DNA of 64,000 nt. Origin: a bacterium (GTDB taxonomy: Bacteria; Electryoneota; RPQS01). The notes beneath the pieces were generated by a model. The model was not told the DNA's origin and ran no database searches. It worked only from the letters and a program-made list of their open reading frames with translations. Positions within the stretch are counted from its first letter, which is position 1. Each line of letters starts with the position of its first letter. Positions 3,919-44,909 of this stretch are shown here, piece after piece. Position numbers and translations under genes: made by a program. The stretch is from positions 1,010-65,009 of the forward strand of contig JADLDM010000187.1 of the NCBI GenBank assembly GCA_020846695.1, given 5' to 3'.

Positions 3919-4992
3919 ATGGCAAGCATTGAGCTGCGCAACATTCGCAAGGTCTTCGGCAGTACGATAGTTTTGCCGGATATCAGTTTCACGGTGCGCG
4001 AGGACGAATTCGTCGTGCTGGTGGGACCTTCCGGCTGCGGCAAGTCCACAATTTTGAGAACCATCGCAGGTCTCGAAACGCCGACTTCCGGCGAAGTGTG
4101 GATCGGAGGAAAGAATATCACCGAGGTGCATCCACGCGACCGCGACGTGGCGATGGTGTTTCAAAGCTACGCGCTCTATCCGCATCTTTCCGTCTATGAC
4201 AACATGGCTTTCGGCCTGCGTATGAGAAAATTCGCGGAGAGCGAAATTGACAAGCGAGTGCGCGAGGCTGCGGCCTTTTTCCAACTCGATGAACTCCTGC
4301 AAAGAAAGCCTAAGCAGCTTTCCGGCGGACAGAGGCAGCGCGTTGCCTTAGGCCGCGCGGTCGTGAGAAATCCCTCGACGTTTCTTTTCGACGAGCCGCT
4401 TTCCAATCTTGATGCAAAGCTGCGCGCGCATACCAGAACGGAGATTGCGCGTTTGCATAAGCGCCTTAAGACCTCGATGGTCTATGTGACGCACGATCAG
4501 ATTGAAGCGATGACTATGGGAGAGAGAATTGTCGTCTTGAAGGATGGCGAAATACAGCAGATTGATACACCGCTCAATGTCTATCGCAAGCCAGCGAATC
4601 GCTTTGTCGCCGGATTCATCGGATCGCCTGCGATGAATTTCATACCCGGAACACGCGAGGGGGGGTCGCTGCGAACGGATTTCTGTAAATTCGAGTTGTT
4701 GGCCGCCACGCAATCGGCCGCAAAGAGTTCCATAACACTTGGACTTCGTCCCGAGCAGATTCTATTAGGCCCTGCGCAGAACGGGCACGTTGGATTCAAT
4801 CTCCTCGTGGACGTCGTGGAGCCGATGGGTAACGAGCTTCTGGTTTACGGTCGTGCCGGTACGCAATCGCTCGTGGTGCGCTGTGATCCGAAGGCCGCTA
4901 TCGCTATTGATCAGACGGTGCCGATGCACTTTGATCCACAGGCGGTTCACTATTTTGATGGTGAAAACGAAAAGGCGCTCCCCATTTCCTGA
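3919..4992 (+). CDS. Sugar ABC transporter ATP-binding protein (MalK/MsmX/UgpC type)
   Basis: Walker A GPSGCGKST, signature LSGGQRQR, Walker B FLFDEPLSNLD, and a C-terminal TOBE-like regulatory domain. Confidence 0.9.
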   Translation: MASIELRNIRKVFGSTIVLPDISFTVREDEFVVLVGPSGCGKSTILRTIAGLETPTSGEVWIGGKNITEVHPRDRDVAMVFQSYALYPHLSVYDNMAFGLRMRKFAESEIDKRVREAAAFFQLDELLQRKPKQLSGGQRQRVALGRAVVRNPSTFLFDEPLSNLDAKLRAHTRTEIARLHKRLKTSMVYVTHDQIEAMTMGERIVVLKDGEIQQIDTPLNVYRKPANRFVAGFIGSPAMNFIPGTREGGSLRTDFCKFELLAATQSAAKSSITLGLRPEQILLGPAQNGHVGFNLLVDVVEPMGNELLVYGRAGTQSLVVRCDPKAAIAIDQTVPMHFDPQAVHYFDGENEKALPIS

Positions 4993-5002
4993 GCGCAACA
5001 TT

Positions 5003-7273
5003 ATGCCGATACTCCTTGCACTCCTTCTTATTGTGACGACCAGCTGCGCCGCCAAGACGGGCGACCTCTATCTGAATATCATCTGGCATCAGCATCAGCC
5101 GCTCTATCTTGACCCGGAAACGGATGAGCTGCGCGGGCCGTGGGTGCGCACGCACGCGACGAAAGATTACTATGACATGGCGGAACTCATTGGGCGTTAT
5201 CCCGAGATTCACGCCACGATCAATCTGACGTCGTCGCTCTTGATGCAGCTTCAGGACTACTACGTCGTGCGTTTGTCGCCGCATCTTCGTGACGGTGCGG
5301 ATGGAAAACGCGAAATTGATGCCGCAGCGTATTTTGCCGCGGGTCGTAAGACGGATCCGTGGATTGATCTTGCGTTGAGGCCAACAGAGTCCTTCACGGA
5401 AGCGGATCGCGCGAAGCTTGTGAGTGAATCGTGGAACGCGTTCGGAATTTCTGACGTGCAGATTCAGCACTTTCCTGAGTATCTTGCGTTAAGGACAAAG
5501 GCGCGCGATTCCTTGACGACTGACGATCTGCGCGACATCAAGGCGTGGTTTTTCCTCGCGCATTTTGATCCCGACTTCCTACGCGGCACGTCGCCTCTCG
5601 ATGTCAACTTGACCGACCTTGTTGAAGAGCGCGAAGGCAAGTTCTATCGAGACGGACACTTCAGCGAGCGCGATGCGAATCGGTTGGTTGCCGATGCGGT
5701 TCGCGTCATGCAAGAGGTTCGGAGTGTTCACGGCAGTCTCGACTTTGATAATGAGAAGCGGAGAGCGGACGGAACCGCCATTTGGCAGTGCGAATTAATT
5801 ACAACACCTTTCTATCATCCGATACTCCCGCTGCTGATTGACTCTGACATCGCAAGGACATGCCAACCGAACGCAGCGTTGCCGAATAGGTTTGCGTACC
5901 CGTCGGATGCTGAAGCGCAGATTGTGAAAGGCAGTTATAATTTCGTCATGACGTTCGGCTATCCGAACATAGGTATGTGGCCGGCGGAAGGTTCGATCTC
6001 GAAGGATGCAGCGGAAGCCTTTGCAAAACTCGGCATGAAGTGGATCTGCGGAGATATGCACGTCTTGTCGAAATCAAAGCCTTCGTCGCTTCCCGTTGCG
6101 CGGCCCTATCGCATCGAGTCGCCGAGCGGGCCGATTGCCATTGTATTTCGTGAGACCACGCTTTCTGATCACATCGGATTCAGCTATCAGAAGATGGAGC
6201 CGAAAGCATCCGTCGAGCACTTTATTCGCGAGATTCTGAAGTTCAAGCCTAAAGGCGATGAGGGCGACTGCCTGCTCACGGTGATTCTCGACGGCGAGAA
6301 CGCTTGGGAATGGTACGAACACGACATGGACGGCAAGGAGTTCCTGCGCGGATTGTACGAGCGCTTAACTGCTTTACGTGAGAACAAAGTTGTTACATGC
6401 GTAACGCCCACTGAGTACTTCATGGGCAATCCCGAACGCGGCGTGCCGCCACATCCCATCAAGGACCTTACCGAGATAACAGAACTCTGGCCAGGGTCGT
6501 GGATCAATGCGAACTACGATACATGGATTGGTGAGTCCGAAGAAAATAAGGCTTGGGAATACTTGCTTCAGACCCGTAGAGATCTTGAAATGAGTGGATT
6601 GCCGCAGCCGCCCTTTATTAACAATGCGATGCCCGAGATGACGCGGGGATTCCGGGAGAGCGGACTTACCGAAGAACAATGGTATGCGGCAAGCGCTGCC
6701 TACGAATCTATGTACGCCGCGGAAGGCTCTGACTGGTTTTGGTGGTACGGCGCCGATCAGAGCGCTGGCGGAGGTGACAAGCCATTCGAGGACGCATTCT
6801 TCTCGCACCTGCGCGCAGTCTATCGCCACATGCAAGAGGCCGGTGTGAAGATTGAGACGCCGGAATTCGCTCCGATCCTAAGCGCAGCGAAACGAGACGT
6901 GCAGGAAGCCGGCGGAGCTATGGCGCGCAATTCAGAAATGCGGCAGGTGCGCTTCGAGTGTGAAGCGCGGCGGATTGAAGTACTGCGCTCCATTTTCATA
7001 GCAGGTAATCGCCCGGAATTTTCCGATTGGAATCCCAACGTCACCGCGTTATTCGATGACGGAACGCGCGGCGACGTGAAAGCCAAAGACGGCGTCTGGA
7101 GTCTCCTCATTGAACTTCCCGTCGGCGCCGAAATACAATATAAGTACACGAATTCCGGTGAGCCAGGGCAGTGGCAGCCTTCGGAAGAATTTCAGCAGGG
7201 CAATCGTGCCTTCACGGTAGAAGCCGGTGATGGGCCTCTTGTTCGACACGACAAGTTCGGTGTGCATGAGTAA
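5003..7273 (+). CDS. GH57-family glycoside hydrolase (alpha-amylase / 4-alpha-glucanotransferase-like) with a C-terminal CBM20/48-like starch-binding domain
   Basis: It has a signal peptide MPILLALLLIVTTSCAA. GH57 region I is WHQHQPLY and region III is MWPAEGS. The C-terminus ...VLRSIFIAGNRPEFSDWNPNV...EIQYKYT is CBM20/48-like. The ATG at 5003 lies 11 nt after the malK-like stop. Confidence 0.8.
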   Translation: MPILLALLLIVTTSCAAKTGDLYLNIIWHQHQPLYLDPETDELRGPWVRTHATKDYYDMAELIGRYPEIHATINLTSSLLMQLQDYYVVRLSPHLRDGADGKREIDAAAYFAAGRKTDPWIDLALRPTESFTEADRAKLVSESWNAFGISDVQIQHFPEYLALRTKARDSLTTDDLRDIKAWFFLAHFDPDFLRGTSPLDVNLTDLVEEREGKFYRDGHFSERDANRLVADAVRVMQEVRSVHGSLDFDNEKRRADGTAIWQCELITTPFYHPILPLLIDSDIARTCQPNAALPNRFAYPSDAEAQIVKGSYNFVMTFGYPNIGMWPAEGSISKDAAEAFAKLGMKWICGDMHVLSKSKPSSLPVARPYRIESPSGPIAIVFRETTLSDHIGFSYQKMEPKASVEHFIREILKFKPKGDEGDCLLTVILDGENAWEWYEHDMDGKEFLRGLYERLTALRENKVVTCVTPTEYFMGNPERGVPPHPIKDLTEITELWPGSWINANYDTWIGESEENKAWEYLLQTRRDLEMSGLPQPPFINNAMPEMTRGFRESGLTEEQWYAASAAYESMYAAEGSDWFWWYGADQSAGGGDKPFEDAFFSHLRAVYRHMQEAGVKIETPEFAPILSAAKRDVQEAGGAMARNSEMRQVRFECEARRIEVLRSIFIAGNRPEFSDWNPNVTALFDDGTRGDVKAKDGVWSLLIELPVGAEIQYKYTNSGEPGQWQPSEEFQQGNRAFTVEAGDGPLVRHDKFGVHE

Positions 7274-8489
7274 ATTTCTGACAGTCGCCGCGATGCTGCT
7301 CTGCGCGCTCGGCTGTGAAAAGCGCGACGGAGCGACACGCATTCAGCTCTGGCATCAGATGCAGCCGGAAGATCGCGCCGTGCTGATGCAAGTGATTGCC
7401 GAATATGACAGCGCACATGCGAACGTCGAGGTTGAGGTGATCTATAAGGAAACGGAAGATCTTCGCTCGAGTTTTCAGACGGCGGCGCTCGCGGGATTGG
7501 GACCTGATTTGATCTATGGCCCCTCCGATCAGGTGGGACCCTTTGCCACGATGCAATTCGTCGAGCCGCTTGATCGTCTCGTGGACGCAAACTTATTGAA
7601 GAAGCTCGACGAGCGCGCGGCAGTGAAATTCAAGGGACACATCTATCAGGTCGCGGATCGCATCGGAAATCACCTCACGCTGGTTTACAACAAGAAGCTC
7701 CTCCCTACACCGCCGAAGACGACTGACGAGTTGATTGAAATGGGTAGAGCAGTTTCGCGCGACACAAACGGCGACGGCGCAACAGATATCTACGGCATCG
7801 TCTGGAATTTCACCGAACCGTTTTTTTTCGTTCCGTGGTTCTCAGGTTTCGGCGGATGGGTGATGGATGAGCAGGGCAATCCGAGCTTGAGCGGCGACGC
7901 GGCGGCAAATGCCTTTCGCTTCGTGAAATCGTTGCGCGATGACTATCACATCGTGCCGCCCGATTGCGATTATAACACCGCGGACGTGCTCTTCAAAGAA
8001 GGGCGCGCCGCGATGCTGGTGAACGGCCCGTGGTCATGGGCGGGATATGGAAATGCAGGCGTGGATTACGAACTTGCGCGCATTCCGCAAGTCACTTCAA
8101 CGGGATTGTGGCCTGCGCCGATGGTGTCGCCATTGGGCTACTCCCTGAACGCGAACAGTGAAGATAAAGAGCGCGACGAGGCCCTGCTCTTGTTGGATTA
8201 TTTGTTATCTGACGGAGTGCAACAGAAGTTTGTCGAAGCAACGGGAATTATTCCGGCGAGCCTTGCCCTGCGCGCTGATTCAAGTTTTCTTTCGCGCCCG
8301 CACATGGAGGAGAGCCTCTCGCAGCTTGAAGTCGGACGCGCGATGCCGGTCGTTCCTGAACTGCGCGCAGTGTGGGATGCGATGAGACCTGCGTATCAAG
8401 CGGTGCTGGGCGGATATCTTTCGCCGGAAGAGGCCGCGAAACAGATGCAGAAGGACGCCGAGCAGAAGATTCGGGAGATGAATGAATAA
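7266..8489 (+). CDS. ABC transporter substrate-binding lipoprotein (maltodextrin/oligosaccharide, MalE-like family 1 SBP)
   Basis: MSKFLTVAAMLLCALGC carries a lipobox LGC. The length (~407 aa) and composition fit a cluster-B SBP. It lies between the ATPase and the permeases. Confidence 0.8.
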   Translation: MSKFLTVAAMLLCALGCEKRDGATRIQLWHQMQPEDRAVLMQVIAEYDSAHANVEVEVIYKETEDLRSSFQTAALAGLGPDLIYGPSDQVGPFATMQFVEPLDRLVDANLLKKLDERAAVKFKGHIYQVADRIGNHLTLVYNKKLLPTPPKTTDELIEMGRAVSRDTNGDGATDIYGIVWNFTEPFFFVPWFSGFGGWVMDEQGNPSLSGDAAANAFRFVKSLRDDYHIVPPDCDYNTADVLFKEGRAAMLVNGPWSWAGYGNAGVDYELARIPQVTSTGLWPAPMVSPLGYSLNANSEDKERDEALLLLDYLLSDGVQQKFVEATGIIPASLALRADSSFLSRPHMEESLSQLEVGRAMPVVPELRAVWDAMRPAYQAVLGGYLSPEEAAKQMQKDAEQKIREMNE

Positions 8490-9357
8490 GGAACGAAATT
8501 TCGCAATGTGGATGGTGATGCCCGCCGCGATTGTGGTAGGACTGGTCGTGGTATGGCCTTTCATCTACAATGTGTTCATCTCGCTCTCGAACATGAGCCT
8601 CCTGCACATTCATGATTGGAAGTTTGTCGGACTGAAGCAGTATCAGAAGGTCTTCAGCGACACAGCTTTTTATGTGGTAATGGGAAAGACGTTTGTTTGG
8701 ACGATTATCAACGTTACCTTTCACGTGACGATCGGCGTTGCGTTGGCGGTGATTCTGCATGAGAATGTGCCCGGCAAACGACTTTTCCGCACGCTGCTGA
8801 TTCTGCCGTGGGCGATTCCGCCGGTGGTCACTGCATTGACTTGGCGCGGATTGTTTCACTATGAATATGGCGCCGTCAATCTGATTTGGACTAAGGTTTT
8901 CGAGCAGACTCCGATTCAGTGGCTGAATGATCCTGTCGGCACGTTTGCGGCGTGTGTGGTGACGAATGTCTGGCTCGGATTTCCCTTCATGATGGTCGTT
9001 GCGCTCGGAGGACTTCAGAGTATTCCGCGCGAACTCTATGAGGCCGCCATGATTGACGGCGCATCTGCATGGCAGAGATTTAAGACCATTACTCTTCCGA
9101 TGCTCGTGCCAGTCTTGACGCCGGCAATCGTCTTAGGGTTCGTTTGGACCTTCAACAAAGTTGACATTATCTGGCTTGTTTCAAACGGCGGGGAACCCGC
9201 TGACAAGACTCACATATTGGTTTCGTTTGTTTATCGCGCGGCCTTCAATCTCTATCGCTACGGCTATGCCGCCGCGGGGTCCATCGTGATTTTTGCCTTG
9301 CTGGTCATATTCTCCGTCGTGTTCATGCGGCGCGCCAAAATGAAGATGGCGGACTGA
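8482..9357 (+). CDS. Sugar ABC transporter permease (MalF/UgpA-like)
   Basis: Multi-TM protein with an EAA-like loop (YEAAMIDGASAWQRFKTITLP). It overlaps the SBP stop. Confidence 0.85.
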   Translation: MNKERNFAMWMVMPAAIVVGLVVVWPFIYNVFISLSNMSLLHIHDWKFVGLKQYQKVFSDTAFYVVMGKTFVWTIINVTFHVTIGVALAVILHENVPGKRLFRTLLILPWAIPPVVTALTWRGLFHYEYGAVNLIWTKVFEQTPIQWLNDPVGTFAACVVTNVWLGFPFMMVVALGGLQSIPRELYEAAMIDGASAWQRFKTITLPMLVPVLTPAIVLGFVWTFNKVDIIWLVSNGGEPADKTHILVSFVYRAAFNLYRYGYAAAGSIVIFALLVIFSVVFMRRAKMKMAD

Positions 9358-9358
9358 G

Positions 9359-10177
9359 ATGCTCAGAAAAATTGTTCTCACAACCGTCATGATCGTCATC
9401 ACCGTGATGACGCTCTATCCCGTGCTCACGGTGGTCACGGTTTCGTTGCGCCCAGCGGATCGTTTGCTTTCGACGTCGCTCGAAATTATTCCTGACGACG
9501 CGACGTTTGACAACTATGTCGCACTGTTCACCGAGCGGCCCTTTGCACGCTGGCTCTTGAACAGCACGCTGGTCGCCGCCGCTGTTACGATCTTCGCAAC
9601 GGCGTTAGCTTCAACGGCGGGTTATGCTTTTTCACGTTTCCGATTTCCGGGTTACAGGGCCGGCATGAGTCTGCTTCTGATTACTCAGATGTTTCCGGCG
9701 ACGATGCTCCTCTTGCCGCTCTTTCTGATGCTGGCGAAACTTCATCTCATCAATTCTTATATAGGATTGATGGTGGTTTATTCGGCGACAGCGCTTCCCT
9801 TCACGGTTTGGCAGATGAAGGGCTACTACGATACGATTCCGCGCGAACTGGAAGAAGCTGCGATGCTGGACGGCGCGAGCCGGTTTAAGACCTTCTATTT
9901 GGTCATCCTGCCGCTCGCCGCTCCGGCTCTGGTGATTACCGCGTTGTTCAGTTTTCTGACCGCTTGGAGTGAATACATCGTCGCCGCGCAGGTGCTGCTG
10001 ACGGAGGATATGTACACGCTTCCTATCGGATTGAAGCAGTTTCAGTCGAGCATGACTACCGAATGGGGACTTTACGCGGCGGGCTCAATTGTGGTTAGTA
10101 TTCCTGTGATTGCATTGTTCTTGAAATTGTCCAAATGGCTTGTGTCAGGACTTACACTTGGCAGCGTGAAGGGATAG
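9359..10177 (+). CDS. Sugar ABC transporter permease (MalG/UgpE-like)
   Basis: Multi-TM protein with the EAA motif ELEEAAMLDGASRFKTFYLVILP. It starts 2 nt after the previous gene. Confidence 0.85.
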   Translation: MLRKIVLTTVMIVITVMTLYPVLTVVTVSLRPADRLLSTSLEIIPDDATFDNYVALFTERPFARWLLNSTLVAAAVTIFATALASTAGYAFSRFRFPGYRAGMSLLLITQMFPATMLLLPLFLMLAKLHLINSYIGLMVVYSATALPFTVWQMKGYYDTIPRELEEAAMLDGASRFKTFYLVILPLAAPALVITALFSFLTAWSEYIVAAQVLLTEDMYTLPIGLKQFQSSMTTEWGLYAAGSIVVSIPVIALFLKLSKWLVSGLTLGSVKG

Positions 10178-10255
10178 ATGATTATGAAGAGACTTGTATT
10201 TATTTTGCTCATGGTTTCCGGCGCATGGGCCGGAACAGACACGGATTGGAAGTAG
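10178..10255 (+). other. Orphan 25-codon signal-peptide ORF (MIMKRLVFILLMVSGAWAGTDTDWK) ending in TAG, in frame with the downstream 1099-aa ORF
   Basis: ATG at 10178 directly follows the malG-like stop. The peptide has an n-region KR, an h-region and an AWA|G signal-peptidase site. A TAG at 10253-10255 is followed in the same frame by EYWIATDAINEVERGDLDLCNV..., which is the N-terminus of ORF 10304. Confidence 0.5.
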
Positions 10256-10303
10256 GAGTATTGGATTGCCACCGACGCCATCAATGAAGTCGAGCGCGGT
10301 GAC

Positions 10304-13300
10304 TTGGACTTGTGCAACGTTTTTTATCGCGTGGATGGGGATCGCGCGATTCTGAAGACGACCTTGCGCGAGGATTGGAAGCAGAGCGGCTCGCTTGAGT
10401 GGACGATCGCACTCGACGGACGCGATCTGCGCGTGAAACCGGAGACCGCGCAGATGCTGGGCATTTCCCTTGAGCAGTATCGCGGCGTGTTTGAGCTTGC
10501 GATTCCGCTCAACGGCGCAAAGGGCGTGCTTGAGTCTGTCGTGATTTCGACTGGCGAAGATCGGATTGAGTGGTCGCGCGATACGCATCGTTCACTCGAC
10601 GGTTTGACCGGTAACTGCGCGTTTGTGCATCACGGAAATCAGGGCTTGACCTACACGGACGTCTTTCGCGGAAGCGGCTCGTCGAACGGTTTCGATGAAG
10701 TCCTGAGCATTCATGATACGCGAAATCTTCCCGGTAACTTTCATCTTTCAGGCACGCTGATTACGGCTGCCGATTGGTATGACAAGCCGTTTTTGCAGTG
10801 GATGCGTGATGGAATCGCCGAGGGTTGGCTCGCCGTGCTCACTTCCGCCTATGCGCAGCACATCATGCCCTTTGTCAATGACAATATGAATAACTGGGCA
10901 GTACATATCGAGCAGGAGTTGATCAGCGACAAACTTGGCTACGAAGCGCATGTCGCGTGGATTCCCGAGCGCGTGTGGTGCGCGCAGGGCATTTCGCCCG
11001 ATGCGGGACTCAGCGATCCTTGGCTCGGCGATAATTGGACACAGCACGGCGTGAACGCCGTTATACTTGACGACTGGCCTCATGTTTCCGGACACGAAAG
11101 CCGGCAGATACATTGGATGAACAACGGAGCCGGCATCACGCTCCGAGTGATTCCGATTACCGGCAGTTTCACGGGAAACTGTCACTACGATCCCGGCGCG
11201 GCTATCTCGCAAATTCAAGGAACCGGACAATACCGTATTGTTGTCTATGGAACCGATTGGGAAGCCGCAGCGGAGATGGCGGATTTCAGTTGCCCCAACT
11301 GTCTCGAAAACTACTCCCAAGTTGCCAATTGGGTCGCCGACAACATGCCCGCTGTCGAGTCATGGAAGCTCGATGCCGCGCTGAATAATCCTGACTTCAA
11401 CGGAACCGGAATCAACGTCGGCAACGGAACGTACGGATTGATCGGCGGAGATCAGGGGTACGGCGGAACCAATAACAGTTGGTACACTGATTGGGCGGGT
11501 ACCGCTTCACATTCGGATTATCATACACCATCTCCGTGGAACTACGGACAGATTTGGACGACGGTTTACAATCAAATTGTTGCCGCGCCCTCAAACAACC
11601 TTTCTGAAACCGCCTGGTACGTGATGATGACCAACCTGCACGAAACCGCGTGGCATGATTACATGGGCGGCCCGATCAGCGGTTGGGAACATCGCTACTC
11701 AAGTCACATCAAGAATGCCGCAGTCTATGCCGAAGCTGCTCGCTGGGCCGCTGGGCTCTACGCGACCACCTGCGCCGCCTTCTATTCGGACATTGATATA
11801 GACGGCATCAACGAGCTTGTGATTCACAATGATCGCGTGTTTGCGGTGTTTGAATCCATTGGCGGCCGCGCGCAGTACATCTTCTCGAAAGGCCCCGGCA
11901 GTGAGAACTTCTCGATTGTGGGAAGCTGCAACACTTATTGGGCGGAGACCGACGGCGACTACGACGAATCCGGTTCGAACAATCATCAGGCCGCATTCGC
12001 CGAAGTCAGCCCGCACTATCGCAACGACCTTTTCGCATTGAGCATTGACTCCAGTTCGACAAGCTATGCGAAGATTCGCCTGTCCTTCGGAGGAGTTACC
12101 AAGACCATCGAAGTTACGCCGGGCAATCCTTATCTCGACGTGCGTTACAGCGTGGGTGCGCAGGATTGCTACATCAAGCACGGCATCACGCCCGATCTGC
12201 TCAGTCTAATTTGGGATGCGGACATGGAGCGCGTCTATGATCCTTCGGTTGCTTACACCGGATTTCGCAATCCGAATGGCGGAGCAACAGGTGCGCTGAT
12301 TCTGGGTAACGGCGGCGCGACTCATAATCTCGAATTTTCCGGCACGCTCCTGCGCGGCGATGAAATCAAAGGCAGCAACGATTTCGGCTATCTGTTTTAT
12401 GCTGGGCCTACTTCACCCGCCGACCCGCAAGGGAACATCACGGAACTTGAAGCTCTTGCGGCGTTGAATCTGGATCACTTCGCACCGAAGCTGGATGCGC
12501 AAGCCGTGTTCATCAATGCGAACACCATCGAGGTCTCGTTTAATGAATCGGTCCATCAGACGCTCGCGCAAACACCGGCAAACTGGTCGCTATCCGGTTT
12601 CACGCAGAGCCACACGGTGACTGCCGCCGTGCGTCAATCCGATTGGAGGCGCGTGAGACTCACCGTGACTCCAAACCTCGCGGGTGGTCAGACCGGACTC
12701 GTCTCGGTGATCAATGTGCAGGACTTGAACGGCAACGCCGTCAATCCAAACTACGACACGGCGACGCTGAATACTCCGTCGGGCTTGACGCCGCATACGA
12801 TTGTGATTGACGGCATCAAAGATTTTGACGTAGCTAACGAGTGCCTGTTCGTCGGAACGGACACGCTGACAATTACGTGGGATACGTCTGCTCTTTACTT
12901 CGGTTACTGGAACAAAGACCTCGCGACGGGCGACTTTTTCATTGACATTGACACGAATCAGACGGTTGGCTCCGGCGCGGCGACAGATTCTTGGGGCAGA
13001 GTGAATCTTGCCAATCCCTATCGCATCGAATATCAGATTGCGATTGAGGGCGGACCCAACAACATCCAAATTAATCGCTGGAACGGTGCAAGCTGGGTCT
13101 TTCTGAATCATGGATCGCATGGCGCGACAAGCTACAATGGATGGTCTGGAAATCCGTTCACCGAAGTCCGCATTCCGTGGAGCGATTTGAACAATCCGAC
13201 CAAGATGGCGTTAGCCGTTCACCTCACACAGGAGAACACAACCACTACGACGCGCGCATTTCCGACTACAAATCCCACGGGCGTGATGGTAACGCTTTCG

Positions 13301-13603
13301 CAATTCTATTTACTCTTCCCGCCGCATACGTCCGGTCCGCTGCCAATCTTCGGAGCGCGCACGAAGAACATTCTTTCTGCGCCGCTGCAAGTCGCCGATT
13401 CGCTGGTGATTCAGCCAGTCGCGGGTGTGCCGCGCTTAACCTGGCCGATTGTTCCGCAGGCGCACACCTATGAAATATGGAGAGCGACGACTCCCGATGG
13501 TGTCTATTCGAAAATTGATGACACCGCTGCGACGACTTATGACGATTTGGCGCCTCCCGCCGATAAGGCATTTTATTACGTTATCGCGCGCGGCGGACTT
13601 TGA
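10304..13603 (+). CDS. Large secreted GH57-like glycoside hydrolase domain protein with a C-terminal Fn3-like module (N-terminus possibly interrupted, see 10178-10255)
   Basis: VHHGNQ resembles GH57 region I and HVAWIPERVW resembles the GH57 region III nucleophile motif. 1099 aa. The C-terminal ~60 aa are shared with three other large proteins in the window. Confidence 0.6.
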   Translation: MDLCNVFYRVDGDRAILKTTLREDWKQSGSLEWTIALDGRDLRVKPETAQMLGISLEQYRGVFELAIPLNGAKGVLESVVISTGEDRIEWSRDTHRSLDGLTGNCAFVHHGNQGLTYTDVFRGSGSSNGFDEVLSIHDTRNLPGNFHLSGTLITAADWYDKPFLQWMRDGIAEGWLAVLTSAYAQHIMPFVNDNMNNWAVHIEQELISDKLGYEAHVAWIPERVWCAQGISPDAGLSDPWLGDNWTQHGVNAVILDDWPHVSGHESRQIHWMNNGAGITLRVIPITGSFTGNCHYDPGAAISQIQGTGQYRIVVYGTDWEAAAEMADFSCPNCLENYSQVANWVADNMPAVESWKLDAALNNPDFNGTGINVGNGTYGLIGGDQGYGGTNNSWYTDWAGTASHSDYHTPSPWNYGQIWTTVYNQIVAAPSNNLSETAWYVMMTNLHETAWHDYMGGPISGWEHRYSSHIKNAAVYAEAARWAAGLYATTCAAFYSDIDIDGINELVIHNDRVFAVFESIGGRAQYIFSKGPGSENFSIVGSCNTYWAETDGDYDESGSNNHQAAFAEVSPHYRNDLFALSIDSSSTSYAKIRLSFGGVTKTIEVTPGNPYLDVRYSVGAQDCYIKHGITPDLLSLIWDADMERVYDPSVAYTGFRNPNGGATGALILGNGGATHNLEFSGTLLRGDEIKGSNDFGYLFYAGPTSPADPQGNITELEALAALNLDHFAPKLDAQAVFINANTIEVSFNESVHQTLAQTPANWSLSGFTQSHTVTAAVRQSDWRRVRLTVTPNLAGGQTGLVSVINVQDLNGNAVNPNYDTATLNTPSGLTPHTIVIDGIKDFDVANECLFVGTDTLTITWDTSALYFGYWNKDLATGDFFIDIDTNQTVGSGAATDSWGRVNLANPYRIEYQIAIEGGPNNIQINRWNGASWVFLNHGSHGATSYNGWSGNPFTEVRIPWSDLNNPTKMALAVHLTQENTTTTTRAFPTTNPTGVMVTLSQFYLLFPPHTSGPLPIFGARTKNILSAPLQVADSLVIQPVAGVPRLTWPIVPQAHTYEIWRATTPDGVYSKIDDTAATTYDDLAPPADKAFYYVIARGGL

Positions 13604-13655
13604 ACTAAGAATATTGTCTTGGCTATACGATACATGAATCTATAAGGAGAAGAAA

Positions 13656-16439
13656 ATGAAAAACTGGCGCAAAATGTTTCTACTCGCCGCAATTATGGCG
13701 GCAACAAGTGCCTTCGCAGTTCCAACCTTTACACCCGTCATAGACGGAGTAAAAGATGCAGGCTGGGGCAACGTACCCGACATCTCACCATCCTCACAGG
13801 CGCAGCCCATCACTTTCAATCTCGACAGTGGCCTGTATATCACAGATGATGCGGCAAATTTGTATTTCGGATTCTGGGGAACGCCTGATCCCTGGGATGA
13901 TGCCGCAAATGTGCACATTCATCTTCTAATTGACACCGGCACCGTCTCTGGTGCGCTGTCTGCTTGTTGGCCCCCGGTCGGAGTGAACTACGCAATGCCC
14001 AATCGCCCTGAGTACGCAATCATGATGCAATGGGGCGACTACTATGTCGGTGACACTGCCTCAATCGGAGAGAGCTTCGTCATGCGTTACAACGCGGGAT
14101 CTTGGTCGCAAGTGGAGCCCCAGATTGCTTTGGACGCAGGCGGATCCGATTCATGGACAGAAATCGCGGTTCCCAAGTCAAGAATCAACCGTCCGGTGGA
14201 AGGTCAGCCCATAAATATCAGCATGTGGCTGCGCCCCTCATTTTGGAACGCCACCTCCCCGGGTGGTGTTGCCTGTCTGCCTGCTCAAGCAAACTTCCCC
14301 TCAGATAATGGCGCCGTTTCTGGGAGGACTCTCACTGTACAACAGGCCTACATGATGCAGGTTGCCGCGAATGACACCGTTCGCCCGCGCATTCATCAGG
14401 TCAAGCAGATTGATCGAACCGGAGTCGAGATTCAGTTCAATGAACCGATGCTCGAGCAGACTTTGGGCAGCTCGCTGAACTATACAACCTTTGGCTGGCC
14501 ATTTAACGGGTCGCGCTATATCACCACGCAGAGTGTCGGAATCAACAACTTCGCAGGCTTCACGGCAGGAAACACATATTCGGTACTGTGTCTGCCCGGT
14601 ATTCGCGATATCTCCAGCAATTCGATTGATCCGGCATTTGATTCCGCAGGTTGGGTGGCGCCGACCTATGCTGATGTCACGTTCCGAGTGATTGACCAAA
14701 GCGCAACCCATGATTCTATCGAAATGAAGGGCTCGTTCAATTTCTATCACGAGCACGATAACTTCTGGGGCGGCGGCAACCAGATCATGTACGACAACGG
14801 CACCCACGGAGATGATGTTGCCGGAGACCACATCTTCACTCTGCTGTGGCCGCTTGTTCCGAGTCCAAACACTTATGAGTGGGGCTGCACTGACGAGCTT
14901 GACAGCTGGTTAGTCGTGGAAGGCAATCAGACATTCAATATTGCGGACGCAACTCCCATCACAGTAACCTACACGATTCCGAGCCTCACGATTCAGGATG
15001 TCACCGTGACTTTTCGCTGCGACATGCGCTGCGTTTTCGATCCGATTGACAGCGTAACTGTGGCCGGTGTCTTTGATAACTGGACCGGAGCGCTGATGAC
15101 CGACGCAAACTCTGACGACGTGTATGAATTGACGATCATCATTCCAGCAGGATCCTCACGCGCTCAAGAATACAAGTATCGTCGTCATGCCGATCTGGGA
15201 CAAACGTACTACGAGGACCCCATGCCGAATCGTGCGTTTGATATCACCGATGAGCAGACGGTCTATGATTTCGGCATTCAGCTTTTCGCCAACTACGAGT
15301 GCGTGCCCCGAATTCAAGAAGTGAGACAGATAGACCAAACAGGGGTCGAAATCCGATTTGACAAAGAGATGTCGGAACCGGCGCTCTCGATCTTGGCAAA
15401 CTACACAATGTTCGGCTGGGCGGCATCCAGCATTCGTTACACATCCCCCTACGTAGTTGCCTTCGAGTATCCGACCGGATTCGCTCCCAACGTTACGTAC
15501 TCCGTTCTATGCGGACAGAACATTACGGCTGTTGACAATACGCCGATTCACTTAGACTACGATTCAGCAGGCTGGATTGCTCCCGATTACGCCGACGTGA
15601 CATTTGAAGTAACCGATCAGACCGCGACTCACGATTCACTTCGCATTCGGGGATCGTGGAATTGGTTCCATGAATACGATGTGGCCTGGTCCGGTGGAAT
15701 AACGTGGCTCTACGATGACGGAACACACGGCGACGTAACCGCAGGCGATCACATCTTCACGACGGTTTGGGTGCTCGTTCCAAGCGCCACGGATTATGCC
15801 TGGGGAGTCGAAGATGAACTCGGTAACTGGCTGCTCGATGGTCCCGATCAGACCTTTAACTTGCCGGACAACAACGACGTCACGGTGACTTACACCATAA
15901 CCCAAGCGCAGGCGACGACGGCGGATGCAACCGTGACCTTCCTTTGTGATATGCAGTGTCAGCCGGCAGGCTATGATGCCGTGAATGTTGCCGGCACATT
16001 CAGCAGCTTCACGCCGGTTGCCATGACTGATGCTGACCTGAACGGACAGTACGAAATCGCGGTGGTGATTCCCGCCGGCTCACCAAGCTTGCAACAGTAT
16101 CTCTTCCTCAAACACACCGTCGAGGGAGATGTGGCCGAACCCATTGCGATTCGTCAATTCACAATTCTTCCCGGTCAGACAGAAGTGAATCTGGGCAACA
16201 AGTTCTTCGGCGATGAACTCTGCCAACCGACCAACCTCACTGTGTATCGAGTTGGTAATTCAATTGAGTTGCGCTGGAGCGGCCCCGATCGCGCAGCCTA
16301 TCAAGTGTGGGAGCGTGATGTGCCGGACCAGATTGCCGAGCTTGGCGCAATCCTTGGGACAACCTCAGCCAAGAGCTATTCCTACTCTCCGATCACACCT
16401 CTGAAGGCATTCTATCAAGTCAAGACCGTGATGCCTTAA
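13656..16439 (+). CDS. Secreted tandem-repeat alpha-glucan (starch) binding protein with two ~300-aa internal repeats containing CBM20/48-like modules
   Basis: AAGGAGA SD lies 8 nt upstream. Signal peptide MKNWRKMFLLAAIMAATSAFA. Repeat 1 (VRPRIHQVKQIDRTGVEIQFNEPM...) and repeat 2 (VPRIQEVRQIDQTGVEIRFDKEM...) are clearly homologous. VTFRCDM...VAGVFDNWTG...EYKY is a CBM20/48-like glycogen-binding pattern. Confidence 0.7.
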   Translation: MKNWRKMFLLAAIMAATSAFAVPTFTPVIDGVKDAGWGNVPDISPSSQAQPITFNLDSGLYITDDAANLYFGFWGTPDPWDDAANVHIHLLIDTGTVSGALSACWPPVGVNYAMPNRPEYAIMMQWGDYYVGDTASIGESFVMRYNAGSWSQVEPQIALDAGGSDSWTEIAVPKSRINRPVEGQPINISMWLRPSFWNATSPGGVACLPAQANFPSDNGAVSGRTLTVQQAYMMQVAANDTVRPRIHQVKQIDRTGVEIQFNEPMLEQTLGSSLNYTTFGWPFNGSRYITTQSVGINNFAGFTAGNTYSVLCLPGIRDISSNSIDPAFDSAGWVAPTYADVTFRVIDQSATHDSIEMKGSFNFYHEHDNFWGGGNQIMYDNGTHGDDVAGDHIFTLLWPLVPSPNTYEWGCTDELDSWLVVEGNQTFNIADATPITVTYTIPSLTIQDVTVTFRCDMRCVFDPIDSVTVAGVFDNWTGALMTDANSDDVYELTIIIPAGSSRAQEYKYRRHADLGQTYYEDPMPNRAFDITDEQTVYDFGIQLFANYECVPRIQEVRQIDQTGVEIRFDKEMSEPALSILANYTMFGWAASSIRYTSPYVVAFEYPTGFAPNVTYSVLCGQNITAVDNTPIHLDYDSAGWIAPDYADVTFEVTDQTATHDSLRIRGSWNWFHEYDVAWSGGITWLYDDGTHGDVTAGDHIFTTVWVLVPSATDYAWGVEDELGNWLLDGPDQTFNLPDNNDVTVTYTITQAQATTADATVTFLCDMQCQPAGYDAVNVAGTFSSFTPVAMTDADLNGQYEIAVVIPAGSPSLQQYLFLKHTVEGDVAEPIAIRQFTILPGQTEVNLGNKFFGDELCQPTNLTVYRVGNSIELRWSGPDRAAYQVWERDVPDQIAELGAILGTTSAKSYSYSPITPLKAFYQVKTVMP

Positions 16440-17867: not shown

Positions 17868-20800
17868 TTAGAATTGTGGTTCGATCCAATAGATAGCACG
17901 ATCCGAGACAATCGGATCGGAGTAATTTGTCGTGGTCGTCGTGCCAATCAATGTAGGCACGGCATCGGGCGCCGGCGCGCGCCAGATCTGATAGTAGGAT
18001 GCGGCAAACACAGCGGGCCAGCGTAACGTCACGTTTCCTCCGTTCGGATAGATCGTCACGTCACGCGCGGAAAGCGAAAGCTCAATCCACTCGCTTGCTT
18101 CGATGTTGCCGTTGGAGACAACCGCAGCAGGAACTTGTCCCGTCAACGCGCCGCCGTTTGCAGTTGCGTAGCGACCGATGCAAATATACGCGCGGTTGGG
18201 GTAACTTCCAAACTCATCTATCAGGTTCAGCGTTCCTTCCAACACCGCGCCCGTCGCAGAGCCAGTTCCACCGGTCGCATCAAACCAGCCGCGCCATCCG
18301 TTGTCCGCCTCTTCCGCAAGAAACGCGCTCCACGCTGCAACCTGCCCCGCCTTCGACCACGGAGCAGTCTGCATCGCGCCGGGCAGTGATGCGATCATCA
18401 GAAAACGATCCGCGCCTGTTCCCTGCGCGCGCTCGGTCGCAAGATACAGTTCACTTCCATTCCAATCGGCCCATAGATTGATTCCCGAAACAGTTCCCAG
18501 CAACGTCGAACTCGTCTCGAGCGTTCCATCCATCAGGAATCCACTTCCGCCCGTCGGTGTTGCGGGAATGTGCCAGTCGAGACCCGTGTTGTTATCCCAA
18601 TTCCCGAGATTATCCGTGAAGACAAAATCCACGGATGTTGCCGACATCGGAATCGTGTACGTATAATGCCAGACTTCCGCCGTGTCGTGGATCATCACCG
18701 GATTCGGATTCACTACTCCTTGCCAGCCGGAATGTCCGATGTGAATATAGAGTGGCGATGCGCCTTGCGGCAGCGTTCCCAAGTCCGCATTGTAGTAGAT
18801 CGTCACCTGATCGCCGCCGTGCAGCGTATCGGGATCCCACCACACTCGATCACCGCCGCCGCCGTTGCCCTGTCCCGTTCCGACGTAGGTGTGAAATATC
18901 TCCGAGCGGGAGACGTTGCCGAGTGAGTCCGTCGCTTCAACATAGTAATCCAAGAGCACGCCGCCCGCGTCGGTGACCTCCGAATCATTCAGATGATAGG
19001 TGTACTGCTGCGCGATGTAAGAAGGCAATTCCTCAAACACGATGTCGCCATAACCATAGGGATTGCCGGCGGGGAACACTCTTCTCGTCATCGCGCGCGA
19101 ACGCCACGCCGACACCTCCGCGCCGCCCGAGTACGTCTCATTCTGAAAGGACGACAGCGGATTCGCGCCGTCAAGATCAAGCCTGTAGTTCAGCGTCGCG
19201 TTCTGCACTCCACTCACATCCGAGATGAATGTCCACACGCGAAAATCTCTCGGATTCTGCACCTGCGTGTATCCGTGCAAAGGGCCGTAACCCGTCGCGC
19301 CCGGATTGTGCGGCCATTGCTGTGGACTCCAAATTGTCGGACCAACCGGATCACCGCCACCTTGCAGAATCTGATCCGCGTAATCCGTAGCTTCATTGCA
19401 AGCAACAACCGGTTTCTGCTCCATGTCCAAAATCGTGCCGTAATACATGTAGCCTGAATTCAAAGAGCCAAGGAGAAAATGCCACGCCAGATCAATCAAT
19501 CCCGGTGAATGCAAGCGCGGATCCTGAATCGCGGCAAGATTCGGAGCGCTGCCGATTGCTTCCGCAGTTACGACACGATTCGTCGCCGCGGTAATCACCG
19601 CCCAGTTGTGCGCGTCAATCGCCCAACCGTTGTCAATATCAATTTGACCGGACGAACTATGTAGCGGCCACAACCAATTGGGAAAATCAGGATCGCCGAA
19701 ATCGCCGTCCGCATTCACCCATGCGCCGTCTTCAACATGAACAACATCGTTCAGTGGAACCGCGTGATCTGCCAGATATTCAGGAACCGTCGTCGGTTCG
19801 TAACCGCGTGACACGGCTTGCGAAGTGAAATTCGGAACACTCTCCATATAATAGGAGTAGCCGCCGCCGAAGGCATTGTCTCCGTCGTGCCCGAGTACGA
19901 CCAGCATTGGACGACTCGGATCGTTCCACGAGGCAATCGCGTCTATGTCATTCGGCGAATAAGGCTGATAGCCGTCCCACCAACTCATCGCCATCGCAAC
20001 CGGAACCACAACAATCGAATCGGCAATTCCCGTAGAGGGATCAACATGTATCGCGCGATGCGGCTGAAAGGAAAATGGAACGGCATCAGTCGGCGAGCAG
20101 CCGCGACTGATATATTGCGTGTTCCAATTTGTCTGCGCGGAATTTACCTGATCCGCAAGATTGGGAGGATTGCAGTTCTCACCTCCGGTTCCAAGCGTCA
20201 ACGGAAAGTTCGAGCAGGCGCGCGAAAGATGCGTCGAAGAAATAAACGTCCACGTCAAGCCGCAATCGCGCAGAACTGGAATAATTCTCTCCGAGAAAGC
20301 AATCTCAGGCGGAAAGAATCCGGTGGAGGGTGCGGGCGAAGCTCCCCACACGCTTGCATAGACCTGCTGATAAATTTGTATATCCTTCTTCAATACCTGC
20401 GGATCAAGCAACGGCGCGAAACTGTGATGATAGGAAATCTGAGTCAACTCCATCTGCGGTCTTCCGCCCGATGTCGTCCAACTGCGCGCGGTCTGATTGT
20501 GCAAGTTCCACGAAGAGTTGTATCCCTGCTCATTGAACGCAGCCAGACTCCCCACGTTGCGCAGGAGACCGCCCGAGTAGGTTACCTGCGCACCGGCGTC
20601 CGCCCCACTCATCACGTCTATCGAGAGCTTGGGCCGATCCTGGTAGGCCGCCACGCGATCCGCTATCCCGAAGATCATGGCCACGTCATTTTCGGGATGC
20701 GGCCAGCCGCCGTTCCTCCGCAATATGGACTCGTGCGCCGTCTCGTAGCCGTTCCCATAGGTGGACTGGTCCGGCCAGTAGATCGGCTGTTCCATGTGCC

Positions 20801-20882
20801 AAAGGTAGGTCGTGTGGATCGGGGCTGCCAAAACCACAGAGGCCGCGACCAATCCCATAAAATAATTTGCTATTGCACGCAT
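17868..20882 (-). CDS. Large secreted GH57-like / alpha-glucan-active protein with a C-terminal Fn3-like module
   Basis: Signal peptide MGLVAASVVLAAP. LWHMEQPIYW resembles GH57 region I and FFPPEIAFSE resembles region III. 1004 aa. The C-terminus ...VTLRWPAVFAASYYQIWRAPAPD... is shared with ORFs ending at 13603, 16439 and 60832. Confidence 0.55.
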   Translation of the reverse strand: MRAIANYFMGLVAASVVLAAPIHTTYLWHMEQPIYWPDQSTYGNGYETAHESILRRNGGWPHPENDVAMIFGIADRVAAYQDRPKLSIDVMSGADAGAQVTYSGGLLRNVGSLAAFNEQGYNSSWNLHNQTARSWTTSGGRPQMELTQISYHHSFAPLLDPQVLKKDIQIYQQVYASVWGASPAPSTGFFPPEIAFSERIIPVLRDCGLTWTFISSTHLSRACSNFPLTLGTGGENCNPPNLADQVNSAQTNWNTQYISRGCSPTDAVPFSFQPHRAIHVDPSTGIADSIVVVPVAMAMSWWDGYQPYSPNDIDAIASWNDPSRPMLVVLGHDGDNAFGGGYSYYMESVPNFTSQAVSRGYEPTTVPEYLADHAVPLNDVVHVEDGAWVNADGDFGDPDFPNWLWPLHSSSGQIDIDNGWAIDAHNWAVITAATNRVVTAEAIGSAPNLAAIQDPRLHSPGLIDLAWHFLLGSLNSGYMYYGTILDMEQKPVVACNEATDYADQILQGGGDPVGPTIWSPQQWPHNPGATGYGPLHGYTQVQNPRDFRVWTFISDVSGVQNATLNYRLDLDGANPLSSFQNETYSGGAEVSAWRSRAMTRRVFPAGNPYGYGDIVFEELPSYIAQQYTYHLNDSEVTDAGGVLLDYYVEATDSLGNVSRSEIFHTYVGTGQGNGGGGDRVWWDPDTLHGGDQVTIYYNADLGTLPQGASPLYIHIGHSGWQGVVNPNPVMIHDTAEVWHYTYTIPMSATSVDFVFTDNLGNWDNNTGLDWHIPATPTGGSGFLMDGTLETSSTLLGTVSGINLWADWNGSELYLATERAQGTGADRFLMIASLPGAMQTAPWSKAGQVAAWSAFLAEEADNGWRGWFDATGGTGSATGAVLEGTLNLIDEFGSYPNRAYICIGRYATANGGALTGQVPAAVVSNGNIEASEWIELSLSARDVTIYPNGGNVTLRWPAVFAASYYQIWRAPAPDAVPTLIGTTTTTNYSDPIVSDRAIYWIEPQF

Positions 20883-21402
20883 TTCCTCTCCACAATCGTC
20901 TAATGTGACGGTGTCACGTAAGGCTCAACTCGGGATTTTCACAGCTCGGCTCCCGATCCATCCGCCACGCACCGCCGCACAGATTACATTTGCATCTTAA
21001 CGCAATAATATACGCAATTTCGCCTTCGGAAGCACTTGCCACAGGGGGCTGTAGCATTTTGTCGCGACGTCACAAATCATTGGAATCTGACTCTAAATAT
21101 CATATTAGCATGAGGATAATGGAAATTCCTGGGTTGCAAATTGGTTTCAAATCATGTATATTGTTGGTGATGAATTGCGGCCGAATCCACTGTTCGCCAT
21201 TATCCGCAATCAATCGCCAGAATCGAGTTCCGCTGGTGACCATAAAACTGTTCCGCGCGGGATTCTGCTTGATAATCAACAATCACCCGATTTTGTGAGT
21301 CCCGTCACCCGCGCGACTCTCAACCCAATGCCGACAAATAGGTGGCTCGGCAAGCTGAACAGCCCGGACCACCATAAACCACACCTCAAACGGATAGAAG
21401 AA

Positions 21403-21969
21403 ATGATTCGCTACACCGCAAAGACACTCGCCGTCGTCGCCATCGTTTTTGGCTGGCTCCTCGTCACAGGCGCTGCGCTCGCGCAAGACTCCACCAAGAC
21501 CCCCACCTACATCGGCGGATCAAAGTGCAAGATGTGCCACAAAGGAGAGAAGAACGGCAACATGTGGGAAATCTGGGAAGGCTCCACGCACGCAAAGTCC
21601 CTGCAAACCCTGATTGACAAGGGCGAGCAGAACAATGCCGAGTGCCTTGCCTGTCACACCACCGGACACGGAGTCGCAGGAGGATACGGCACCGCCGGAA
21701 TGGAAGCGCCTGAAGCTCTCGGTTCCGTAAGCTGTGAAGCATGTCACGGCCCCGGATCCGAATACAAATCCAAGAAAGTGATGGAAGATCACGCCGCTTC
21801 CGTGGCCGCGGGACTCTGGATTCCTGACGAAAACACCTGTAAGAAGTGCCACAATGAAAAGTCTCCGACTTTCAAGGGCTTCAACTTCGCCGAAGCGTGG
21901 GCGAAGATCAAGCACGAGACTCCCGCTGTCGCCGACAGCGCCGCCGCACCCGCGGGCGGATCGAACTAA
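21403..21969 (+). CDS. Periplasmic tetrahaem cytochrome c
   Basis: MIRYTAKTLAVVAIVFGWLLVTGAALA signal or anchor. Four CxxCH motifs (CKMCH, CLACH, CEACH, CKKCH). Confidence 0.8.
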   Translation: MIRYTAKTLAVVAIVFGWLLVTGAALAQDSTKTPTYIGGSKCKMCHKGEKNGNMWEIWEGSTHAKSLQTLIDKGEQNNAECLACHTTGHGVAGGYGTAGMEAPEALGSVSCEACHGPGSEYKSKKVMEDHAASVAAGLWIPDENTCKKCHNEKSPTFKGFNFAEAWAKIKHETPAVADSAAAPAGGSN

Positions 21970-22123
21970 CCCGCCGCAGCACATTCACTCTATTCAACGC
22001 GGCTTCCGAAATGGAGCCGCGTTGAGTAGGGAACTCCGATTTCGCTGTCTGAATCACGGGCCGACGAACCTGCATTTGTGAAAAGAATCACATTGCGCCG
22101 ACGGCCCGATTGAAGGCAAGATT

Positions 22124-23050
22124 ATGAATCTCAACCGTCGCGACTTCCTCAAATTCGCCGGAGCGACGACTGCTACAGCCGCACTCACTTCGCTCCCGAT
22201 CAAAGCGGAAGCGACCGAACATTTCACGGGACATCCTGATCGCAAAGGAATCCTCGTGGATACCTCGCTCTGCATCGGACACAACTGCCGACGCTGCGAA
22301 TTTGCCTGCGCCAAAGAAAATTACTTGCCGACTCCTGACAAACCTCCGGAAGATGCAAGTGTCTTCGACCAGCGCCGCCGCACTCACCCTGATCAGTTTA
22401 CCGTTATCAATCGCTTTCCCGGCCGTTCCGAGGACATGCCTGTCTATGCAAAAAAACAGTGTATGCACTGCGACGAACCGGCCTGCGCATCCGCCTGCTT
22501 AGTCGGAGCATTCAAGAAAACCCCTGAAGGAGCCGTCACCTACGATGCCTCCGTCTGCATCGGCTGCCGCTACTGCATGGTCGCCTGCCCCTTCGACATT
22601 CCAACTTACGAATACAACAGTGCACTTCACCCTCGCGTCAGGAAGTGCACTTTCTGTTTTGAGACTAAACTGAAAGAAGGGAAAGCTCCGGCCTGCGTCG
22701 AAGCCTGCCCGCGCGAAGTGATGACCTTCGGAAAACGCGAAGACTTGATCAAAGTCGCGCGTCAGAAGATCGCCCGCAACCCCGACAAATACGTTGACCA
22801 CATCTACGGTGAGCATGAAGTCGGCGGGACAAGCTGGATGTATCTCTCGCCCGTGCCGTTCGATTCTATCGGCATGAGAACCGATCTCGGCACGACGCCC
22901 TATCCCGAACTCACGCGCAACTATCTTTCCGCGGCCCCGCTCGTTATGGCCATCTGGCCGAGCTTCTTCCTCACTCTGTATCTGTTCAACAAACGCAAAG
23001 ACCAGATCGCCGCCGAAGAAAACGGCAAGCATAAAGAGGAGAGTGCTTAG
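22124..23050 (+). CDS. Tat-exported 4Fe-4S ferredoxin-type subunit (NrfC/PsrB/HybA/ActB-like) with a C-terminal TM helix
   Basis: Twin-arginine motif NRRDFLKF. Four Cys clusters of the CxxCxxCxxxCP type (CMHCDEPACASAC, CIGCRYCMVACP, CTFC...CVEACP). Confidence 0.85.
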   Translation: MNLNRRDFLKFAGATTATAALTSLPIKAEATEHFTGHPDRKGILVDTSLCIGHNCRRCEFACAKENYLPTPDKPPEDASVFDQRRRTHPDQFTVINRFPGRSEDMPVYAKKQCMHCDEPACASACLVGAFKKTPEGAVTYDASVCIGCRYCMVACPFDIPTYEYNSALHPRVRKCTFCFETKLKEGKAPACVEACPREVMTFGKREDLIKVARQKIARNPDKYVDHIYGEHEVGGTSWMYLSPVPFDSIGMRTDLGTTPYPELTRNYLSAAPLVMAIWPSFFLTLYLFNKRKDQIAAEENGKHKEESA

Positions 23051-24288: not shown

Positions 24289-24449
24289 CCGCGTACACAC
24301 CATGCACACACTTCACGAATTCACGCTCGTTACGCAAGCAGGCGAGTATATCACCGGAATCGTCGGTCTGCTTCTGTTTGTTCCCTTCTGGAAAGCTCTC
24401 AACGCGCGACCCAAGCGCAAACACTAATTTTCGAGTCGGGCGACCGACC

Positions 24450-25541: not shown

Positions 25542-25544
25542 CAT

Positions 25545-28004: not shown

Positions 28005-28013
28005 ATTGAAGTA

Positions 28014-30512: not shown

Positions 30513-30532
30513 ATAAGCTTGCGCGTTTTTTG

Positions 30533-30568
30533 AGAGCCGTTCGCTAAATGCGGGCGGCTCTTTTGTTT
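30533..30568 (+). terminator. Rho-independent terminator after the cytochrome c/b operon
   Basis: AGAGCCGttcgctaaatgcgggCGGCTCTtttgttt. A 7-bp GC-rich stem plus a T-tract, 20 nt after the stop. Confidence 0.55.
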
Positions 30569-30643
30569 AGCACACTAAGTGATGAAGAAACAGAAGGCGT
30601 GGAAAAAAATTTTGCAGAACGGAGGTGGTTGAAAAGATGAGAG

Positions 30644-30856
30644 ATGAAGCGGGAAGTGAAGAATCTGCGGGCAGGAACACGTAAGCTGTTGTGTTACCTA
30701 TTGAACGTTGCGAAGAGTGAAAAGTTCCGGGCTGTTCTTGAAAGAGATAGAGATTGGAGGAGGATTCAGAGCGCACGCAGTGCGGCACTACAGGAAGCAG
30801 ACAGACACGATTTATCATGTCCCTGCGATGAGAAAGAGAAACGGTCGCTTGAGTGA
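30644..30856 (+). CDS. Candidate small charged protein (70 aa) between two terminators
   Basis: A GGAGGTGG SD lies ~15 nt upstream. The ORF MKREVKNLRAGTRKLLCYLL...CPCDEKEKRSLE has its stop inside the loop of the downstream hairpin. The region is purine-rich. The call is speculative. Confidence 0.2.
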   Translation: MKREVKNLRAGTRKLLCYLLNVAKSEKFRAVLERDRDWRRIQSARSAALQEADRHDLSCPCDEKEKRSLE

Positions 30857-30876
30857 GCGACCGTTTGATGTTTTTG
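30838..30876 (-). terminator. Bidirectional hairpin terminator downstream of the minus-strand cytochrome operon
   Basis: AAACGGTCGCttgagtgaGCGACCGTTT. A perfect 10-bp stem with T-rich flanks on both strands. It lies 14-50 nt downstream of the gene ending at 30890. Confidence 0.5.
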
Positions 30877-30889
30877 ATAGGGGAGACGT

Positions 30890-34120: not shown

Positions 34121-34148
34121 GAGGGAAACTGCTCCTTTCTGCTGAAAC

Positions 34149-44908: not shown

Positions 44909-44909
44909 A

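Follow-up and report, generated by a model that had tools for sequence, protein, structure and literature searches.

The amber allele of rpoS in Escherichia coli K-12 carries TAG at codon 33, and downstream re-initiation gives rise to an N-terminally truncated, partly active protein. In Salmonella, Feng et al. (2022; PMC9122581) demonstrated that many pseudogenes with in-frame stop codons yield low amounts of protein ("pseudo-pseudogenes"), with UAG being read through most, usually as Gln, and with C being enriched at the +4 position. Disruption of a gene by a single stop codon is an already known and ordinary kind of feature. Here, we describe a probable case from a starch/maltodextrin locus of a bacterium, found in a 64-kb window (the whole stretch of DNA that was analysed, 64,000 nucleotides). 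As in the Salmonella examples, a single in-frame UAG interrupts a gene that is otherwise intact and has uninterrupted orthologues; the operon mRNA is presumably still made, and trace read-through would be possible. The gene differs from these examples in its +4 base, which is G and not the enriched C, and in being known from sequence alone. Moreover, if the ancestral codon was TTG, the change would be a T-to-A transversion, whereas C-to-T and G-to-A transitions dominate among the Salmonella cases (PMC9122581). With the rpoS allele it has in common an early amber codon, a possible in-frame re-initiation and a shortened product, but here both the export signal and the first strand of a folded domain would be lost with the N-terminus, and a re-initiated product would sit in the wrong compartment.

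Architecture of the Interrupted Gene

The gene is encoded on the forward strand directly downstream of a malG-like ABC permease gene (9359–10177; Pfam BPD_transp_1), the stop codon of which (TAG, 10175–10177) abuts an ATG at 10178 (TAGATG). This ATG opens a frame of 25 codons that is ended by an in-frame TAG at 10253–10255, followed by G as the next base. Past this amber codon, the same frame remains open for 1115 codons until TGA at 13601–13603, so that the translation reads MIMKRLVFILLMVSGAWAGTDTDWK, TAG, and then EYWIATDAINEVERGDLDLCNVFYR and onwards. The original prediction of an in-frame amber codon between a signal peptide and a long ORF was thereby confirmed directly in the sequence, the 1099-aa ORF that it described corresponding to this frame when counting begins at its first TTG (10304). 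A second in-frame ATG is present at 10184 and is probably the true start rather than 10178, because the orthologous proteins begin with MK(K/R). Over the stretch 9344–13603, malG, the 25-codon ORF and the 1115-codon ORF lie in one reading frame and are split by just these two TAG codons. Slippage or phase variation at the second of them was rejected, as the site contains neither a homopolymer nor a simple repeat.

The 5' end of the interrupted gene (10178–10252) encodes a predicted Sec-type signal peptide, (M)IMKRLVFILLMVSGAWA, with cleavage in front of GTDTDWK. Signal peptide and cleavage site were judged by eye using the −3/−1 rule, and the sequence displays all features expected of an SPase I substrate, that is, a basic n-region (MKR), a hydrophobic h-region (LVFILLMV, where about 8–12 residues are expected) and a cleavage site with small residues in the −3 and −1 positions (SGAWA, followed by G). 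The N-termini of 28 orthologues have the same n–h–c layout with an A-x-A-type site and a subsequent ..WK motif, and their signal peptides correspond in length and place to that in the window, directly after malG. A start and a signal peptide belonging to the downstream ORF itself had been named beforehand as a possible objection; both were looked for and neither is present, the lack of a signal peptide having been noted originally. The enzyme is expected to be exported, with the signal peptide not being optional, because the locus appears to serve starch/maltodextrin utilisation and several of its proteins carry signal peptides.

In the public annotation (P0001; IT157_09645), the gene starts at a TTG (10310–10312) that is preceded by GGTGA at 10298–10302, and its product, a hypothetical protein of 1097 aa, is 100 % identical to the window. 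This gene model conceals the interruption, so that the database entry presents an intact protein and not a pseudogene.

Comparison with Orthologues

A homologue search with the joined sequence from both sides of the TAG retrieved 531 homologues, the 28 closest of which (self-hit excluded; 53–72 % identical, 1145–1170 aa) were aligned. They originate from metagenome-assembled genomes (MAGs) that carry the labels Calditrichaeota/Calditrichota, KSB1 or simply "bacterium", and cover 98–100 % of the joined query, also on the 5' side of the TAG. In 28/28 of these proteins, and likewise in 16/16 orthologous DNA loci that were taken from species-representative genomes, the signal peptide shares one uninterrupted frame with the remainder. 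Homology continues in frame on both sides of the stop, with the signal peptide upstream and a conserved EHW..DLCN motif downstream, and the motif (T/S)(P/D)WK-[L/I/V]-EHW of the orthologues aligns residue for residue across the TAG. These alignments indicate that the 25-codon ORF and the 1115-codon ORF are one gene, as the original prediction had implied. A chance juxtaposition of the short frame and the downstream ORF is excluded at the level of these comparisons, because the orthologues have a matching signal peptide after malG as well as a motif that aligns across the stop. That the short ORF might prove not to be conserved had been named beforehand as a possible objection; the signal peptide is found in all 28 orthologues.

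The amber codon itself is private to the genome under study. At its position, a stop codon occurs in 0/28 proteins and 0/16 loci, so the comparison of orthologues that had been proposed for this site returned a sense codon throughout. The aligned residue is L in 17 proteins, I in four, V and T in two each, and P, K and R in one each, and the codons in the 16 loci are GTT, GTG, CTC, CTC, CTT, TTG, GTT, CTC, ATC, CTC, AGC, AGG, AAA, AAA, CTT and ATC. The TTG (locus L006) is a single substitution away from TAG, and a Leu codon, for instance TTG, is the most probable ancestral state.

The surrounding gene order (GH57-CBM20, malE, malF, malG, the GH57-like gene and orf927) is kept in eight loci, in all of which the GH57-like gene begins a few bases past the malG stop, as in the window; residues 1–272 of the malG-like product are 80–92 % identical to the positional counterparts in these eight orthologous loci. 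Viewed as a whole, the operon at 3919–16439 is syntenic in at least eight MAGs of a Calditrichota/KSB1-like group (L001, L002, L003, L005, L006, L008, L013 and L059), with the conservation of MalG (80–92 %) contrasting with 59–71 % identity for the big enzymes. Separately, the records L004, L005, L006, L008, L011, L012, L013 and L018 include several third-party MAGs that are titled "uncultured Alphaproteobacteria bacterium", and L010 is titled "Candidatus Puniceispirillum sp.". The loci in these records share 53–70 % identity with the window protein, as do those from MAGs labelled Calditrichaeota or KSB1, and the organism names in their titles look unreliable.

The Encoded Protein and Its Locus

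The remainder of the gene (10256–13603) encodes a multidomain protein that resembles glycoside hydrolases of family GH57, as judged from Pfam, the orthologues and a structural model. The Pfam model Glyco_hydro_57 (PF03065) matched with 34.7 bits against a cut-off of 21.2, limited to 92 aa (residues 153–244), and no NCBIfam model matched the protein. When the family profile was compared with the PDB, the sole enzyme match was a GH57 4-α-glucanotransferase (1K1W, E 3.4e-4), and the other matches were to C-terminal Fn3-like domains. An AlphaFold (AF2) model computed from an alignment of 29 sequences (mean pLDDT 73) predicts an N-terminal β-sandwich formed by residues 1–110 after the TAG (pLDDT about 88–92), the first strand of which corresponds to residues 2–6 (YWIAT), then a GH57/GH38-like helical/barrel core, several β domains and a C-terminal Fn3-like domain. 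The best fold match obtained with Foldseek was 1K1X (E 9e-12, TM 0.24/0.39), and GH38 mannosidases matched as well. Two motifs are invariant in the family alignment, namely AWIPERVW (with E238) and ILDDWPH (with D272 and D273), which may resemble GH57 regions 3 and 4 with the nucleophile (Glu) and the acid/base (Asp).

Among known systems, the protein comes closest to family GH57 as exemplified by the 4-α-glucanotransferase of Thermococcus litoralis (1K1W/1K1X), with which the window protein shares its GH57 character, PF03065 being above threshold. It differs from this enzyme in the low TM-score (0.39 on the target), in its size of about 1150 aa with an extra N-terminal β-sandwich as well as Ig-like and Fn3-like domains, and in that just about 92 residues fit the Pfam model and none of the NCBIfam models applies. 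In its uninterrupted form, the product would be a secreted, GH57-like enzyme of about 1140 aa with putative activity on starch or maltodextrins. The family of proteins of this type (about 1150 aa; the window protein and P0002–P0120) counts more than 500 homologues and has no characterised member. Its Bacteroidales versions are larger (1400–1870 aa) and feature PKD/Ig repeats and a T9SS sorting domain.

Domain searches revealed malK, a GDE-type enzyme with a glucodextranase C-domain, a GH57-CBM20 protein, malEFG, a GH13 protein and a GH57-CBM53 protein in the locus. These surroundings fit a starch/maltodextrin utilisation locus, within which the GH57-like gene is the fifth gene of the conserved GH57-malEFG operon and is accompanied by two other GH57 proteins, one GH13 and one GDE-type enzyme. 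The downstream operon gene, orf927 (13656–16439, forward strand), encodes a secreted protein (MKNWRKMFLLAAIMAATSAFA and onwards) with a short NCBIfam match to a choice-of-anchor X domain and is syntenic in the orthologous loci. Rho-type polarity is a possible consequence of a premature stop for a downstream gene, and orf927 could conceivably suffer from it. An intact paralogue of the catalytic part that could compensate for a loss was looked for elsewhere in the window and none was found, the only similarity being a C-terminal 60-aa module. This module of about 60 aa, which resembles Fn3 and matches PDB entry 3MPC ("Fn3-like protein"), is common to three secreted proteins at 34–40 % mutual identity, that is, the GH57-like protein (residues 1047–1109; 13394–13582), the product of 13656–16439 (residues 860–923) and that of 17868–20882 on the reverse strand (residues 939–1000), and it may represent a common anchoring or sorting module in a lineage in which other proteins (encoded at 60–1214 and 44868–46568) have T9SS Por_Secre_tail domains.

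A further feature of the window is a large cluster of multihaem c-type cytochromes at 21154–38779 (MtrC/MtrF-like, c7, c3 and c554 domains). The cluster also comprises a 4Fe-4S protein with a TAT signal as well as an NrfD-like membrane subunit, and it has the appearance of a module for extracellular or periplasmic electron transfer. It contains two tandem paralogues of about 820 aa (25545–28004 and 28014–30512); in the first one, multihaem cytochrome c domains are fused to a cytochrome b561 domain, for which no match was reported in the second. Three proteins had no Pfam domain at the thresholds used, namely those encoded at 13656–16439 (927 aa), at 60832–63831 on the reverse strand (999 aa) and at 32882–34120 on the reverse strand (412 aa).

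Origin and Consequences of the Stop Codon

We consider it somewhat likely (probability of roughly 0.55) that the TAG is a real nonsense allele that is specific to this genome and arose by a change of a single base. This change would have converted codon 24 (counted from ATG 10184), located just past the cleavage site, into TAG, so that ribosomes initiating at ATG 10184 would terminate after about 23–25 residues and the enzyme would no longer be made with its export signal. The gene would thereby have become a pseudogene of very recent origin, or the assembled population would carry a null allele. Ordinary leaky read-through of UAG would provide at most traces of the full-length protein, and re-initiation at TTG 10310 or at an in-frame ATT (10265–10267) could give a truncated, non-exported product. 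While we infer both that the base is real and how it would affect translation, the comparisons show directly that the two pieces form one gene, that none of the orthologues has the stop and that the ORF has not decayed: the 1115-codon ORF shows no other defect and the signal peptide is intact. Private changes were counted at alignment columns where a single sequence deviates from 28 identical ones; there are five in the window protein, as compared to 0–6 in the orthologues and 3–6 in orthologues with branches of similar length. Changes of this kind are hence not elevated, and an old pseudogene under relaxed constraint was rejected on these grounds. Since the downstream ORF shows no decay, the change must be either very recent or an error in the consensus. 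Even for a real allele, calling the gene "dead" may be too strong, as low-level read-through of UAG has been documented in bacterial pseudogenes (PMC9122581).

The original prediction had offered three causes, of which mutation and error are both retained and programmed read-through is disfavoured. An error in sequencing, assembly or consensus, or a minority strain variant, ranks second behind the real nonsense allele and is a possible though less probable explanation; the actual gene would then carry a sense codon (e. g., TTG) and be functional. In its favour, the window is part of a metagenome-assembled genome and represented by one contig (P0001 is listed as "hypothetical protein IT157_09645 [bacterium]"), the lesion amounts to one substitution, and the gene is otherwise pristine, with the signal peptide, 1115 open codons and the invariant residues all kept. 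Indeed, a consensus error would equally leave a lesion-free ORF and a perfect signal peptide. However, the neighbouring genes are free of frameshifts and stop codons relative to orthologues and profiles: five operon neighbours align colinearly and over their full length to their orthologues (e. g., malF 1–288 and malG 1–272), and distant genes match their Pfam models from end to end (AcrB 2–1020 of 1021, LpxB 1–371 of 374), by which the assembly does not look error-prone. Furthermore, substitution errors are uncommon in short-read consensus sequences, and long-read errors are mainly indels. An exact-protein look-up returned no other contigs with an identical MalG or P0001, and two scans of a metagenome collection gave no match, one using 23 specified bases that surround the TAG and the other a pattern for WKxEYWIATDAINEV that was degenerate at wobble positions; the nearest relative in species-representative genomes is only 71 % identical. 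These searches returned no independent copy of the species by which mutation could be told from error.

If the stop is real, the gene might still function through an isoform that is not exported, a cytoplasmic enzyme acting on imported maltodextrins whose translation would start either once ribosomes had terminated at the TAG or without any dependence on that event. This would be compatible with the ORF being free of decay, with domain matches indicating that the operon imports maltodextrins via MalEFGK, and with Shine-Dalgarno-like motifs at suitable spacing, as GGTGA is located 7 nt before TTG 10310 and an AGGAG pentamer that overlaps the TAG (10254–10258) is located 6 nt before ATT 10265. 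AAGGAG-type sites precede the ATG of some genes in the window. Given an ancestral TTG, the AGGAG would have been absent beforehand and created by the substitution itself, and any role of it in re-initiation would be conjectural. On the other hand, either start cuts into the confidently predicted N-terminal β-sandwich, and the one at TTG 10310 drops, in addition to the signal peptide, strand 1 (residues 2–6) and the conserved W3, D7 and D18. Besides, ATT is a very weak start codon, GGTGA merely represents the Gly-Asp codons of a conserved motif, and every orthologue is predicted to be exported, the Bacteroidales relatives even with T9SS sorting domains, all of which renders such an isoform unlikely. 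More doubtful still is a real and tolerated TAG that tunes the gene, with leaky read-through exporting a trickle of enzyme and the AGGAG or the GGTGA-TTG 10310 pair driving the non-exported isoform. Least probable is programmed decoding, in which regulated read-through, a suppressor tRNA, or pyrrolysine or other recoding would yield the full-length secreted enzyme by design. The position tolerates L, I, V, T, P, K and R, so that any inserted amino acid would do, and UAG is the stop codon that is read through most often in bacterial pseudogenes (PMC9122581), but the +4 base is not the C enriched at such sites and none of the orthologues retains a stop there. Nor does the stretch 10240–10360 (121 nt) contain a stimulatory RNA structure, its minimum free energy of −34.7 kcal/mol being no better than the mean of shuffled sequences (−34.0; z = −0.19). 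The 64-kb window holds no tRNA genes, and its large ORFs no pyl-type or other recoding-related domains. TAG is moreover a normal terminator in the window, because it ends 10 of the 34 large ORFs (TAA, 15; TGA, 9); global recoding of TAG, deemed unlikely from the outset, was rejected for the window for this reason. Programmed read-through is thus disfavoured by the lack of conservation, of a stimulatory structure and of a suppressor in the window. A further in-frame TAG junction at 28002–28004, between the two 820-aa ORFs, was considered as a parallel case and rejected, as the two ORFs are paralogous cytochrome genes in tandem and the downstream one has its own ATG and a hydrophobic N-terminus.

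Implications

The finding matters mainly for annotation. P0001 should be flagged as a pseudogene or as a possible sequence error, since its present entry hides that it is the interrupted orthologue of a predicted secreted enzyme whose true N-terminus lies upstream of the stop. If the stop is real, a conserved operon for starch utilisation has very recently been deprived, completely or almost so, of one exported enzyme in this lineage, which would be a small and ordinary biological event. Should the TAG instead tune expression, a gene of the starch operon would have become dual-localised or attenuated in this lineage. Of greater interest than the stop codon is the GH57-like family to which the interrupted gene belongs.
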